Source: Candidatus Woesearchaeota archaeon (GTDB lineage: Archaea > Nanobdellota > Nanobdellia > Pacearchaeales > GW2011-AR1). Taken from it: 45,391 nt of DNA. Both the position numbers and the translations under genes were made by a program. Location: positions 1 to 45,391 of the forward strand of contig CAZAAB010000001.1 in NCBI GenBank assembly GCA_964483015.1. The letters run 5' to 3'. Within the stretch, counting starts at the first letter, position 1. Every line of letters starts with the position of its first letter. This document shows, one piece after another, positions 24,807 through 45,391 of this stretch. The notes beneath the pieces were generated by a model. That model had not been told where the DNA came from. It did no database searches and was given only the letters and a program-made list of their open reading frames with translations.

Positions 24807-25982
24807 ATGAATAACAAGAAGAATTTATTGATACCAACTTTAATAATTTCTATAGCCTTAACAGCATACATAGTTTTAGCAGCAACCCAATCTATACACA
24901 CGCCTGTAACAGGAGGAAATTATTCTGGAACTATAACATTTAATGTATCTACAAACACAACAAGATGTAATGCGTGTAGAAATGCTACGATATATTATAA
25001 TTCTTCTGGAGCAATTAATGTGAAAGATAAAGCTGTTTTAACAAATTTAACAACACTAACTAACAACACTGCAAATGATGTAAGTTTTAATGGTACAATA
25101 AGTGTAACAAGTTTAGGAGATTTGCCAACATATAGTTTTGCAGCATTATTAGACAACGGAACAAAGCAAAACTGGACAGGAGTTGTTTCAAGCATCACAA
25201 TAGATAACACTGGACCAAATGTATCTATAAATGCCCCTGTAAATAATCTTAACACAAGCAGTGAAAGTCTTGTTTTAAATGCAACTGTAAATGATTCTTT
25301 ATCAAGTGTTCAGGCAGTTTATTTTAATTTAACTAATTCTACAGGACAGCAGGCATTTACAAATGCCACAGAAATAGGGAAAAACTATAATGTCACTTTA
25401 AATACTTCTTCATACAAAGACGGCTCTTATGTATTTACCGTATATGCAAATGATTCATTAGGGAATTTAAATAAAACTGAAAATATTACAATAAACATAG
25501 ACTCTACAGTCCCTTCAATTACATTAACAAAGAAAGATTCAGGAAAACATTCTTTGTCAATTACTATATCTGTTTCAGACACAACCGGAGTTAATGGGTT
25601 ATGTACAACTGACAGATCAACAACAGTAACTGGAAGATCAACAACAACACAAACAACAAATGAATCTGGGTTAAGCTGTGGAAGCACATATGATTATACT
25701 GTAACCTGTACAGATTATGTTGGAAATAGTAATGCAGCAACAAGTTCATTCACAACTTCTTCATGTAGTGGTGGTGGGGGAGGAGGAACAACATCTTCAT
25801 ACTGGGGGATGACATATGCCCCAAATAAAGAACAGGTAAGTGAAGGATATGAGAAAACAATGAGAGAAAAGCAGAGAGTAAGAGTTTCAGTGAATAATAG
25901 GGAGCATTATGTAGGGGTTTTGGCTGTTTCAGAAAATACAGCAACAATAAATGTTTCAGTGACCCACAACAAGCGACATTAA
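24807..25982 (+). CDS. secreted cell-surface glycoprotein, N-terminal reading frame
   Basis: N-terminal signal/TM (LLIPTLIISIALTAYIVLA); more than 20 N-x-S/T sequons by eye; Thr/Ser-rich and Gly-rich linker; ends at a stop with an open -1 frame continuing. Confidence 0.7.
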   Translation: MNNKKNLLIPTLIISIALTAYIVLAATQSIHTPVTGGNYSGTITFNVSTNTTRCNACRNATIYYNSSGAINVKDKAVLTNLTTLTNNTANDVSFNGTISVTSLGDLPTYSFAALLDNGTKQNWTGVVSSITIDNTGPNVSINAPVNNLNTSSESLVLNATVNDSLSSVQAVYFNLTNSTGQQAFTNATEIGKNYNVTLNTSSYKDGSYVFTVYANDSLGNLNKTENITINIDSTVPSITLTKKDSGKHSLSITISVSDTTGVNGLCTTDRSTTVTGRSTTTQTTNESGLSCGSTYDYTVTCTDYVGNSNAATSSFTTSSCSGGGGGGTTSSYWGMTYAPNKEQVSEGYEKTMREKQRVRVSVNNREHYVGVLAVSENTATINVSVTHNKRH

Positions 25983-26254
25983 CAGCAGGACAAGAAGAAA
26001 AGTTTGAAGTTACAGATGATAATTATTATGATTTATTAGTTAAGTTAAACTCAATTGTTGACAGTGAAGCTAACTTAACAATTAAAAGCATACACGAAGA
26101 AATAACAGAACAAGAAGAAACAACAGAAGAAACAGAAGAAGCTGAAGCTGAAGAAGAAGCTGAAGAAGAAACAGGAAGCATGATATGGTTATGGGCATTA
26201 ATTGTAATTGTAATAGCAGTAGTAATTTATGTTCTGTATAAACAAAGACAATAG
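25961..26254 (+). CDS. C-terminal continuation of the same surface protein in the -1 frame (no start codon of its own)
   Basis: Hand translation DPQQATLTAGQEEKFEVTDDNYYDLLVKLNSIVDSEANLTIKSIHEEITEQEETTEETEEAEAEEEAEEETGSMIWLWALIVIVIAVVIYVLYKQRQ; acidic linker, TM anchor, then a basic tail. The frame is open from 25901. Confidence 0.6.
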   Translation, partial: DPQQATLTAGQEEKFEVTDDNYYDLLVKLNSIVDSEANLTIKSIHEEITEQEETTEETEEAEAEEEAEEETGSMIWLWALIVIVIAVVIYVLYKQRQ

Positions 26255-41590: not shown

Positions 41591-43225
41591 ATGAAGGGAA
41601 AAATTTTAACAGGATTGTTAGGAATTTTACTAATATTAACAGTTAGTTTTGCTTCTGCTTTAAGTATTTCAGCAAGTCCAAGCTCACTAACTTTAAACAG
41701 GTTTGATAATTCTAAAACAATAACCTTAACAAGTACAGATAATTTTGATATTTCTGCAATAAGCCAAAAAACAATCACAGATTCAGATGGAGATTCAATA
41801 ACCTTAACTGTAAGCCCCACTAATTATAATAATGTTACTGAAGCAGAATTTAATATAACAGCTTCAGGAGATTTTGATGATTTAAATTTAGGAGAGTATT
41901 CTACTGAACTTAATTTTAATGCTGTAAATGCAAACAACAGTAATGATACAAGAACAATAAATTATACAGTTAATTTTAACCAGGTTTTTTGTGAAGCTAA
42001 AAACCCTGGAGAATTATCAATTTCTGATATAGAGTTTGATGTAAAGGCTGGATATGGAGATGATGAAGATTTTTGGTACCCTTTAGACGAAATTGAAGTA
42101 GAGTTTGATGTTGAAAATGATGGAGACTGGGATGTAGAAGATATTGAAATTGAAGCTTGTTTATATGATTTAGATGAAGAAGAGTGTGTTATAGATGAGG
42201 GAGATATGGATATAAGCAATGATGATTTTGATTTAGACGAAGACGATGATGAAAAAACAGTAAGATTAACATTTGACTTAGACCCAGACGACTTAAATGA
42301 AGGAAACAATGATTATAGATTATACTTGAGAGCAACAGGAGAGATAGATGATTCAGATGCAGGAGATTTAGACGGCAATGCAACTTGTGTTAGCGATTTT
42401 GAAGATATTGAAATAATAACAGATGACGAGTTTATGGTTTTAGGCAATTTTGATATTCCAGAAACAGTTGGTTGCGATGAAGAATTCCAGGTTTATGCAG
42501 AAGCATGGAATATAGGAGATGATGAATTAGACGATGTTTCTGTAGTTATAAGAAACGAAGAATTAAACATAACCAAAGTATTGTCTTTAGGAGATGTCGA
42601 TTCATTTGACAGCGTAGATGTTTTAACAAACTTGAAAATACCTCAAGATGCAGAAGAAAAAATATACAGCTTGATATTTGAAGTTTTTGATGATGATGGA
42701 GATTTGTTTGAAAATGATGAAGATGATGAAGCAAGAGTACTTAAAAGATTAGAAGTTAAGGGCAATTGTAAAAAAGAAGTAAACGCTTCAATAACAGCTT
42801 CTTTAATTTCATCAGAAGATGCTATTAAGGCAGGAAACACTATTGAGATTAAAACAGAAATAACAAACACAGGAGAACAAGAAACTACATACACTTTAGC
42901 TTTAGACAGGAATGAACTATTTTCAACAGTACAAAATATTCAGCCTTCTTCACTAACCCTTGAACCAGGAGAAGAAGGAAGTTCAACAATAACATTAAAG
43001 TTGTTAGAAGATGCAGAAGGAGAAAAAGTTTTTGATATAAAAACTGTCTTTAATGGAAATGAGATTAAACAGCCAGTATCTTTAACAATAGCAAAGGGAT
43101 TTTCACTAGGAAACTTAGGACAAAGTTTTAAAGATAACTGGTTTATATGGGTGATTGTTCTTATAAACATAGTTTTGATTGTAGCAATAATAATTGTGGC
43201 AGTAAAGATGACAAAATCTTCTTAA
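41591..43225 (+). CDS. highly acidic secreted surface protein with a C-terminal membrane anchor
   Basis: 544 aa; signal peptide (LLGILLILTVSFASA); long Asp/Glu-rich beta-type domains; C-terminal DNWFIWVIVLINIVLIVAIIIVAVKMTKSS. Confidence 0.7.
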   Translation: MKGKILTGLLGILLILTVSFASALSISASPSSLTLNRFDNSKTITLTSTDNFDISAISQKTITDSDGDSITLTVSPTNYNNVTEAEFNITASGDFDDLNLGEYSTELNFNAVNANNSNDTRTINYTVNFNQVFCEAKNPGELSISDIEFDVKAGYGDDEDFWYPLDEIEVEFDVENDGDWDVEDIEIEACLYDLDEEECVIDEGDMDISNDDFDLDEDDDEKTVRLTFDLDPDDLNEGNNDYRLYLRATGEIDDSDAGDLDGNATCVSDFEDIEIITDDEFMVLGNFDIPETVGCDEEFQVYAEAWNIGDDELDDVSVVIRNEELNITKVLSLGDVDSFDSVDVLTNLKIPQDAEEKIYSLIFEVFDDDGDLFENDEDDEARVLKRLEVKGNCKKEVNASITASLISSEDAIKAGNTIEIKTEITNTGEQETTYTLALDRNELFSTVQNIQPSSLTLEPGEEGSSTITLKLLEDAEGEKVFDIKTVFNGNEIKQPVSLTIAKGFSLGNLGQSFKDNWFIWVIVLINIVLIVAIIIVAVKMTKSS

Positions 43226-43273
43226 TTCTTTTAATTTAATAACATATTTAAACCTCATTCCAATTTAATAGAT

Positions 43274-43798
43274 ATGAAAAAAAACAGGTTTTATTTTCTT
43301 ATTTTAAGATACATTATTTTAGTTTTAGTAGCTCTTCCTAACCTGTATCTTTTTTACTCTATTTTTACACCCTTAACTATTTTCCCTGTTTTTTACCTTT
43401 TAAATATTTTTTTTAAAACTTCTTTAACTGATGCAGCAATAACTTTTAACGGAACAACAATACACCTTGTTAAAGCGTGTATTGCTGGCTCAGCATACTA
43501 TCTTCTTTTAATACTTAACTTGACAACTCCCATGAAAATTAAAAAAAGGATATTTTCTATCTTATTTTTATTTTCTTCTTTTCTAATTGTAAATATAGTA
43601 AGAATTCTTTTATTTTCTATAATTCTCCTAACCAGTTTTTCTTTATTTAAAACCCTGCATTTAATAACTTGGTATTTTCTTTCAGCAGCAATAGTCTTTT
43701 TAATCTGGCTTTTAAATATTAAAATATTTAAAATTAAAAAAATCCCTGTTTATTCTGATATTTCTTCTTTATTTAAAGTTGTTAAGAAAAAGAATTAA
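43274..43798 (+). CDS. archaeosortase/exosortase-family-like membrane protein (short, 174 aa)
   Basis: Polytopic; Cys69 in VKACIAGS, Arg110 in NIVRIL, His129 in TLHLITW, in the order and context of the exosortase Cys/Arg/His signature. Confidence 0.5.
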   Translation: MKKNRFYFLILRYIILVLVALPNLYLFYSIFTPLTIFPVFYLLNIFFKTSLTDAAITFNGTTIHLVKACIAGSAYYLLLILNLTTPMKIKKRIFSILFLFSSFLIVNIVRILLFSIILLTSFSLFKTLHLITWYFLSAAIVFLIWLLNIKIFKIKKIPVYSDISSLFKVVKKKN

Positions 43799-44267
43799 AT
43801 AAGTTAATAATTCCTAAACTTGCTAATAAAATTATTATTCCTGCTATCAAAACCCCCAAGGCTATTGCAGGGATGCTTTTCTTTTTTTCTAAGCCTAAGA
43901 GCCAGGCTATTAAACAGCCAGTCCATGCCCCAGTTACAGGCAGTGGAATAGAAACAAACAATGTTAACGCAAAATAGCCAAGAGAAGGCATCCTTTTTTC
44001 AACCTTATCAACCCTTTTCCTTACTCTTTTAACATAAAAATTAAAAATCTTTTTGTATAGATAGATTTTCATAAATGAGTCATGCAAAAAATCAAGAAAA
44101 AAGAAAATTAAAAAAATAACCAGGATATTTAATAAAACTATTAAAGTAAATATTGGCAAAAGGGGGAGGTTGTTTTTTAATGCATAATTTATTGCCAATG
44201 GTAGGCCGCCTCTCAACTCAGTTATAGGAAGCAGAGATAATATCACCCCTATCAATAATTGGTTCAT
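43782..44267 (-). CDS. small membrane protein, COG2426 / small multidrug-export-like family
   Basis: 161 aa, 4-5 TM; LPITELRGGLPLA N-terminal motif. Confidence 0.45.
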   Translation of the reverse strand: MNQLLIGVILSLLPITELRGGLPLAINYALKNNLPLLPIFTLIVLLNILVIFLIFFFLDFLHDSFMKIYLYKKIFNFYVKRVRKRVDKVEKRMPSLGYFALTLFVSIPLPVTGAWTGCLIAWLLGLEKKKSIPAIALGVLIAGIIILLASLGIINLFNSFS

Positions 44268-44270
44268 TTT

Positions 44271-44957
44271 CTAAATAGCTTTATAATCTTTATACCACTC
44301 AATGATAAACTTTTCAGCCAGCTCCATATTTGTACAGTTGGCAACATTTAAAAGATAGCAATTGCCTTTTTGTTCTATACTGCTTTCATTGCTTTTTTTA
44401 AATATAACAGCTTTATAGCTACTTTCACTACAGTTTATGTAAGTGCTTTTTGTCAAGTTTGCTTCTGATTTGTTAGGTGTTCCAGGAAAAGCTTTAACCC
44501 CTATTTGAGAAAAAAAGGGAATAGAAAGAGTAGCTGCAGCTTTAATACTGTCTTTACAGCTTTCAATGTCTTTTTTTGATGAAGCTATTGACATATTTTT
44601 CTTCAATATAATTTCTTCTGTATTAACCTGGATGTATTCTAAGTCTCTGGGATCGTTTCTAAAACTGAAAGGAAGATATTTGATAGTTTCCCCATACTTA
44701 TTTTTTAATGGCAGGTTTGTGTTATAATAAATAATCTTCCCTTCTTTGCCTTTTTTAAATTCTAAACCCTCATACTCAAAAGTTTCTGTACTCTTAACTA
44801 TTAGGTTTATAAGAAAAATAAATGCAATTAACCCAACCATAACAAATATAGCCAATCTAATCTGTTTTTCCTGCTTTTCTTTTTGTTCTTTCTTACTTTT
44901 TTTCTTTTCTTTTTTCTCAATCCCTTCTTTACTTGCCTTGTTTTTTTTCTTTGTCAT
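44271..44957 (-). CDS. membrane-anchored hypothetical protein (Lys-rich N-terminus, one TM, extracytoplasmic Cys-containing domain)
   Basis: ORF architecture only. Confidence 0.5.
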   Translation of the reverse strand: MTKKKNKASKEGIEKKEKKKSKKEQKEKQEKQIRLAIFVMVGLIAFIFLINLIVKSTETFEYEGLEFKKGKEGKIIYYNTNLPLKNKYGETIKYLPFSFRNDPRDLEYIQVNTEEIILKKNMSIASSKKDIESCKDSIKAAATLSIPFFSQIGVKAFPGTPNKSEANLTKSTYINCSESSYKAVIFKKSNESSIEQKGNCYLLNVANCTNMELAEKFIIEWYKDYKAI

Positions 44958-44961
44958 TTTT

Positions 44962-45391
44962 TTAGTTATTTAATTTTAGAAGCTTGTAAATAAAAGCATC
45001 ACTCGCTTTTAGAACATCTTCTTTTTTTGAGTCAATATAAACACAATTATTATTCTGGTTTATTAAGGTTTTGTTTCTCTCTCTGATTATAATCATATTG
45101 TTACTACAGTTTTTTACAGGCAAGTTTTCTTCACAATTTTCAACACATGCAAGCTGTGTTCTTTGTATAAAGTGTTGAAGATTTCTGGCAATTTCTTGAA
45201 CTGCCTGCCTGTTACTTTTGTAATGAAAATATAAAGGTTTGTTGTAATAATCTTGTAAAGTTAATGTTAAAAATCCCGAAGCATTTTGTGTCTGTTCTGG
45301 ATTAAATAAAGTAGAAAACTGGTAACCTTCTATACTAAAATGCCATAACCCATCTTCTTGCAATTCAAATTCAATATCTTTATATTTTACT
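44962..45391 (-). CDS. hypothetical protein, 5' end probably outside the window
   Basis: The reading frame stays open to the window edge; the track start at 45363 is a TTG. Confidence 0.45.
   Translation of the reverse strand, partial: VKYKDIEFELQEDGLWHFSIEGYQFSTLFNPEQTQNASGFLTLTLQDYYNKPLYFHYKSNRQAVQEIARNLQHFIQRTQLACVENCEENLPVKNCSNNMIIIRERNKTLINQNNNCVYIDSKKEDVLKASDAFIYKLLKLNN

Follow-up and report, generated by a model that had tools for sequence, protein, structure and literature searches.

The window, by which we mean the whole stretch of 45,391 nucleotides that was analyzed, carries a gene for an acidic, secreted-type protein and, 48 nt 3′ of its stop codon on the same strand, a gene for a small polytopic membrane protein [Table 1]. 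A DedA-superfamily gene is convergent with the latter and overlaps its 3′ end by 17 nt. The initial annotation of this DNA described a 174-aa polytopic protein with Cys69, Arg110, and His129, the Cys and the Arg being 41 residues apart, and upstream of it a 544-aa Asp/Glu-rich secreted-type protein ending in -KMTKSS. Both descriptions are exact on re-reading of the two open reading frames. The source genome is 536 kb in size and 84% complete.

Table 1. Features of the locus and of the second surface protein in the window (feature, coordinates, strand, remarks).
PACE-CTERM putative S-layer protein gene	41591..43225	+	544 aa, acidic; NF033506
Predicted Sec signal peptide (MKGKILTGLLGILLILTVSFASA, followed by LS)	41591..41659	+	Basic N-terminus, hydrophobic core, A-S-A; cleavage site inferred
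C-terminal tripartite sorting signal, aa 515-544	43133..43225	+	DNWFIW, TM helix VIVLINIVLIVAIIIVAV, basic tail KMTKSS
Pacearchaeosortase gene	43274..43798	+	174 aa, polytopic, pI 10.25; NF033505
PF06695 (Sm_multidrug_ex) DedA-superfamily membrane protein gene	43782..44267	-	PF06695 117.5 bits
Body ORF of Ig-like (Big_13) surface protein	24807..25982		391 aa, stops at 25982

The 174-aa protein had been read as an archaeosortase, to be checked against the NCBIfam exosortase and archaeosortase models. With hmmscan it matches NF033505, "pacearchaeosortase", at 199 bits (cut-off 80; E 5.5e-59), and the alignment is full-length, residues 8-170 corresponding to positions 3-166 of the 167 in the model. 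A profile search of the source genome finds one copy over the cut-off (198.5 bits). The remaining NCBIfam matches are weak and are all to exosortase/archaeosortase models, i.e., ArtE, the exo_archaeo signature, XrtX, and heimdallarchaeosortase. The score of the exo_archaeo signature, TIGR04178, stays just under its cut-off of 23 both with hmmscan (19.8 bits) and in the genome search (22.1 bits). ArtE (TIGR04124, model of 153 positions) is of similar size and gives a weak match from end to end (2-153 to 2-152 of 153; E 7e-5), and XrtX (NF046081, model of 168 positions) is similarly small. Membership in either family was nevertheless rejected, given scores of 22.9 bits vs a cut-off of 95 for ArtE and 17.9 vs 170 for XrtX. 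The cognate signals of these families also differ. No family was matched in a Pfam scan. Moreover, hhalign comparison with L077, an archaeosortase of a relative that is positive for the signature (TIGR04178 49.9 bits), gives a weak alignment (E 0.006), which pairs ACIAG with PCSG and VNIVRI with VNVIRI, such that the Cys and the NxxR motif are aligned. The NF033505 match, the exclusively exosortase/archaeosortase nature of the weak matches, and the hhalign result together argue for homology to this superfamily, and the proposed identity as an archaeosortase-type enzyme is therefore supported at the level of sequence.

The pattern of conservation points in the same direction, as the initial annotation had anticipated for Cys, Arg, and His. 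A search of 5.8 billion proteins returned 1413 homologues, and in the best 120 of these 1413 (47-100% identity) Cys69, Asn107, Arg110, and His129 are invariant (120/120), as are Arg12, Arg92, Trp133, Trp145, Pro158, and Asp162. The same four residues, C69, N107, R110, and H129, are likewise invariant in 56/56 homologues in a second alignment. Cys69 (in VKACIAGS) is the sole Cys of the protein, Arg110 (in NIVRIL) sits in the NxxR motif, and His129 is part of TLHLITW; Cys69, Arg110, and His129 are thus candidate catalytic residues. In the AF2 model (pLDDT 88, pTM 0.81), helices span residues 3-46, 72-84, 89-120, and 122-151, with a small β-sheet at 49-64. Hydropathy, the positive-inside rule, and the AF2 secondary structure combined would place the three candidate residues in the outer halves of the consecutive helices 72-84, 89-120, and 122-151. 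A PDB sequence search with the sortase gave nothing at E<=10, and a Foldseek comparison of the AF2 model with the PDB gave nothing below E 3.7.

A close known parallel is offered by ArtA and its PGF-CTERM substrates, such as the S-layer glycoprotein: in both cases a polytopic membrane protein is paired with an S-layer-type protein whose C-terminus consists of a motif, a TM helix, and a basic end. In Haloferax ArtA, Cys173, Arg214, and Arg253 are critical (PMC9263693), and the distance from Cys173 to Arg214 in the Haloferax volcanii enzyme is 41 residues, the same as that between Cys69 and Arg110; the similarity in spacing noted in the initial annotation is correct. For Arg253, the pacearchaeosortases have no equivalent Arg that is invariant, and carry the invariant His129 instead. 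There are further differences. ArtA is about 300 aa long vs 174 aa for the pacearchaeosortase, and it has many substrates, whereas one substrate is predicted here. In addition, the ArtA model is not among the NCBIfam matches of the sortase, and the tail of the neighboring protein has no PGF before the helix, where it reads DNWFIW.

The 544-aa protein belongs to NF033506 ("PACE-CTERM-PROT, putative S-layer protein"), whose model it matches at 379.7 bits (cut-off 110; E 2.9e-113). Residues 35-542 align with positions 122-626 of the 627 in the model, so that the C-terminal region of the model is covered, and in a profile search of the source genome this is the only NF033506 copy above the cut-off. 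The protein has a pI of 4.05, 22.8% Asp+Glu, and eight N-x-S/T sequons, together with weak Pfam matches to Ig-like/fn3 domains at residues 409-480. A role in the S-layer is putative, suggested by the name of the curated model, the acidity, the predicted signal peptide, and the sequons. It begins with a signal-peptide-like N-terminus and ends in ...DNWFIWVIVLINIVLIVAIIIVAV-KMTKSS, with an internal Asn within the TM helix VIVLINIVLIVAIIIVAV of the sorting signal. Seventeen orthologue tails, with the window's own tail included, give the consensus G-DNW[YF][LI]W-x-IG-xx-N-[VI]IL...IIIVA[VI]-[KR]V.R[KR]. An HMM built from these tails and run on the six-frame translation of the source genome finds a single match below E 0.01, namely the 544-aa protein (53.4 bits, E 4.5e-15), the next best match having an E of 0.013. 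Membership in NF033506, conserved adjacency (see below), and the conserved tripartite tail support the reading that this protein is the cognate target of the adjoining sortase. The earlier proposal of cognate substrates thus holds for the upstream acidic protein but not in the plural: the 544-aa protein is the single substrate predicted in the source genome.

This pair is already known and does not constitute a new kind of system. NCBIfam curates both partners, as pacearchaeosortase and PACE-CTERM-PROT, and public GenBank records name homologues "pacearchaeosortase [Nanoarchaeota archaeon]" and "Candidatus Pacearchaeota archaeon"; since such models and record names exist, the system has been catalogued, and the description of its motif as undescribed has to be withdrawn. 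In the window, enzyme and partner both score above the curated thresholds, essentially over their full length, with the same pairing in the same lineage, and we see no difference of substance between the NF033505/NF033506 pair and the locus in the window. A search of a literature library found no paper on this family.

How far enzyme and substrate travel together was assessed in 401 genomes of the phylum, 91 of which have an NF033505 match over the cut-off. In the family to which the window belongs, 25/27 genomes have the enzyme, and in at least 23 of those 25 the substrate gene comes immediately before it, co-directional and no more than 2 kb away. In the other families, at least 29 of the 66 sortase genomes have the substrate within 6 kb, in 28 cases on the opposite strand. 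These substrate counts are among the NF033506 matches listed, so genomes without a listed substrate may be overcounted; the gaps are distances between the edges of HMM matches, and the relatives that enter the counts are not independent samples. Because the two genes are co-directional in the window's clade vs on opposite strands in other Nanoarchaeota families, the pairing survives changes in gene order and orientation. The tails differ along the same line, with DNW[YF][LI]W, an Asn in the helix, and IIIVA[IV][KR] in the window's clade vs a FWIIGD-type tail in the other families.

The initial annotation further expected the motif to be enriched in genomes that carry the enzyme, and this expectation was largely borne out. 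The NF033506-like proteins of 16/16 sortase-less genomes have a different anchor, with ...GLIIGFNKLR, an acidic stretch, and then [TP]YY. In sortase-bearing genomes, 13 of the 16 tails fetched read, by eye, W/F-x-I/L-G/A-D or W...N with a basic end, while the other three proteins (L068, L073, and L074) have other endings, also judged by eye. Judged from these sequences, the tail type appears to track the presence of the enzyme in most of the genomes sampled. The exceptions are of two kinds. One genome of the window's own family, G241 (95% complete), has a PACE tail and an empty sortase slot, with a DedA gene directly 3′ of the S-layer gene. Five others, G062, G108, and G184 (family f42) and G163 and G177 (f26), have broadly similar W/F-rich, basic-ended tails and no detected pacearchaeosortase; the FW..GD core is found only in G108 and G177 among these five. 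A search for a divergent, hidden sortase in G241, G354, G184, and G062 gave none at E<=10. The weak sortase match in G108 was discarded, as it is a different, longer archaeosortase beside a PEF-CTERM-like protein; neither G184 nor G062 has a homologue of it.

A second surface protein in the window, spanning 24807..26254, had been linked to the sortase on account of its C-terminal end. The tail ...GSMIWLWALIVIVIAVVIYVLY-KQRQ does exist, ending at 26251 with the stop codon at 26252..26254, but it is out of frame with the 391-aa body ORF; a frame break at about 25955-25970 splits the body from the anchor. Orthologues have continuous frames of 480-600 aa, which bears out that the window copy is broken. 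Likewise, the W-x-(I/L)-W start said to be shared by the two tails is present in the 544-aa protein (W-F-I-W), while the second protein reads W-L-W. This protein belongs to the Big_13 Ig-like family and is not a member of NF033506, and the tails of its orthologues are of a type of their own, in which an acidic linker leads to [TW]W[LI]W, where the helix begins, and the helix has no polar residues and is followed by KKRK. With the PACE tail HMM, the window's second tail scores 1.7 bits (noise) and the orthologues at most 9 bits, and the tail is absent from the genome-wide matches at E<=10. Tail HMM, family, and orthologue tails thus give no support to the second protein as a substrate, and this reading is rejected. 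A census of ORFs with a C-terminal TM and basic tail in the source genome, suggested at the outset as a way to find a common motif, gave about eight plausible anchored proteins with no common pre-helix motif, and a broad substrate set is for this reason rejected.

Collectively, these data make it very likely that the locus encodes a dedicated pair for surface-protein sorting, with one enzyme and one substrate, in archaea of the Pacearchaeota type (GTDB Nanoarchaeota). What is observed is the parts list and its conservation, while each chemical step is deduced from the analogy with Haloferax ArtA and the bacterial exosortases. On this analogy, the putative S-layer substrate would be exported through Sec and would stay membrane-bound through its C-terminal helix. 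Both the DNW[YF][LI]W motif and the helix with its Asn would then be recognized by the sortase, and Cys69 would attack the chain near the motif, resulting in removal of the helix and the basic tail. The new C-terminus would then be joined to an acceptor in the membrane, which is probably a lipid.

This acceptor marks a difference from Haloferax. Lipidation of ArtA substrates in Haloferax is supported by PssD, and the PS decarboxylase PssD (PF02666) was found neither in the source genome (84% complete) nor in five out of five near-complete sortase-bearing relatives. A PssA-type CDP-alcohol transferase (PF01066) was likewise not found in the source genome at this completeness, and was found in three of the five relatives. 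An ArtA-style ethanolamine-lipid acceptor is therefore apparently not encoded, and the acceptor, if any, is, as judged from gene content, not made via the ArtA-associated route.

The convergent gene behind the sortase is of interest in this context. It is the sole DedA-superfamily gene detected in the source genome, and the corresponding slot holds a PF06695 gene in 11 of 30 loci and a DedA/VTT gene in another nine, i.e., 20/30 together. PF06695 and DedA/VTT are both part of the DedA superfamily (bioRxiv 10.1101/2020.12.18.423352), and bacterial DedA proteins act as undecaprenyl-phosphate flippases (PMC10127716, PMC12893004). The association is observed, and we infer from it a possible accessory gene; that its product supplies or flips a lipid is speculation.

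An alternative that bears on the last step of the model is that the enzyme only cleaves. The helix would be removed and the S-layer protein released, to be kept in place by the lattice or by other non-covalent contacts, and no lipid would be attached to it. The negative search for PssD (with PF01066 in only part of the relatives) would fit such an enzyme, as would the absence of an invariant Arg counterpart to the third critical residue of ArtA and the general view that DPANN archaea are without lipid synthesis. Against this, transpeptidase-like sortases typically carry the Cys/Arg/His set that is invariant here, lipids derived from the host could act as the acceptor, and the usual neighbor of the sortase is a lipid-handling gene of the DedA superfamily. 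On balance, we regard cleavage alone as unlikely. The same considerations also lend themselves to a transfer reaction whose chemistry departs from that of ArtA: the S-layer protein might be attached to a lipid that comes from the host or is of the polyprenyl type and that the DedA-superfamily protein presents, with recognition perhaps via the conserved polar residue inside the helix (Asn here, Asp in other clades). This proposal is put forward because a PssD route is not found in these lipid-dependent symbionts and a DedA-superfamily gene accompanies 20/30 loci, as the sole copy here; it is tentative, and we consider it rather improbable in this particular form.

The dedicated sorting pair has also to be weighed against readings in which enzyme and neighbor are coupled less tightly. 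The Ig-like protein, and perhaps other anchored proteins, could be processed as well, by way of a loose aromatic-Trp signal where the helix begins. The [TW]W[LI]W of the Ig-like orthologues, followed by a basic tail, is superficially like the PACE [YF][LI]W, but an interfacial Trp is common in any TM anchor, and these tails carry neither an intramembrane Asn/Asp nor DNW. Given in addition the near-background scores with the tail HMM, the broken frame of the window copy, and the lack of a common motif in the other approximately seven C-terminally anchored ORFs of the genome, such a multi-substrate system is very unlikely. It is harder still to credit that the small membrane protein does not act as an enzyme on its neighbor at all, having another role in the membrane and an adjacency that reflects inherited synteny. 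The sub-threshold score with the generic TIGR04178 signature and the PACE tail that G241 retains without a sortase gene would be compatible with it. The pairing, however, outlasts changes in order and orientation between families, the tail type follows the enzyme in most genomes sampled, and the polar triad is invariant at a fixed spacing.

If the dedicated-pair reading is correct, some of the smallest archaea keep a sorting enzyme devoted to their main surface protein, which aids the annotation of DPANN cell envelopes. These organisms also appear to be without the lipid pathway on which Haloferax draws at this step. The logic is also that of bacterial sortase A, a Cys/Arg/His transpeptidase that acts on LPXTG proteins with a C-terminal signal composed of a motif, a TM helix, and a basic end. 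The likeness of sortase A to these enzymes has been described as convergent (PMC9263693). Sortase A is unrelated in fold and sequence and is an extracellular enzyme with a single anchor, whereas the pacearchaeosortase is polytopic, with its active site predicted to lie in the outer half of the membrane.

A DedA-superfamily gene occupies the slot immediately after the pacearchaeosortase gene in 20 of 30 loci (the window and L008-L036). Eleven of the 20 are PF06695 genes, all on the strand opposite to the sortase, and the remaining nine are DedA/VTT genes, seven of them on the sortase strand. No second DedA-superfamily gene was detected in the window's genome besides the copy listed below. In about seven loci the slot is filled by the 228-aa/133-aa Cys-containing proteins. 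Their synteny with the sortase locus is conserved in several relatives, and in G241 they come after the DedA gene.

Coordinates of the features discussed
Feature	Location	Strand	Remarks
DedA-superfamily gene	window 43782-44267	-	directly behind sortase
Cys-containing protein, unknown family	window 44271-44957	-	228 aa; N-terminal anchor; FEYEG motif
Cys-containing protein, unknown family	window 44962-45363	-	133 aa
Ig-like (Big_13) surface protein	window 24807-26254	+	N-glycosylation-rich; frame-broken
S-layer locus (L053)	G241:C1:378000-383000
Archaeosortase (L077)	G108:C59:1-2306		298 aa; distinct from pacearchaeosortase
Tandem pacearchaeosortase genes	G141:C8:12228-13245
Tandem pacearchaeosortase genes	G279:C25:1928-2991

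G241 belongs to the window's own family (95% complete, 4 contigs). Its 649-aa S-layer protein retains the PACE-type tail; the sortase gene is absent from its usual slot, and none was found elsewhere in this genome at E<=10. In the 16 genomes without pacearchaeosortase (L037-L052), the NF033506-like surface proteins (420-470 aa) all share a distinct, highly conserved C-terminal anchor, in which GLE[IV]AL.VLVIILIIIGLIIGFNKLR is followed by 10-15 acidic residues and, at the extreme C-terminus, [QE][TP]YY. This anchor looks like a separate cytoplasmic-tail signal.

The G108 archaeosortase scores 49.9 bits against TIGR04178 (cut-off 23 bits), matches ArtC and VPEID-exosortase weakly, and has a paralogue (41% identity) on contig C42. 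It adjoins a 147-aa secreted protein, the C-terminal end of which, ...IPEFGLIGGAIAILGSGIGFLTLRRKHN, resembles a PEF-CTERM signal. Pacearchaeosortase genes form a tandem pair in two genomes of the same genus (G141 and G279), and a TAA stop splits the gene of G324.

The window's Big_13 surface protein is split by a frame change near 25955-25970, leaving a 391-aa body that stops at 25982; the other frame encodes the last ~96 aa (domain end, acidic linker, and TM anchor). Either the assembly is wrong at this point or the gene is a pseudogene. Orthologues are 480-600 aa in an unbroken frame.
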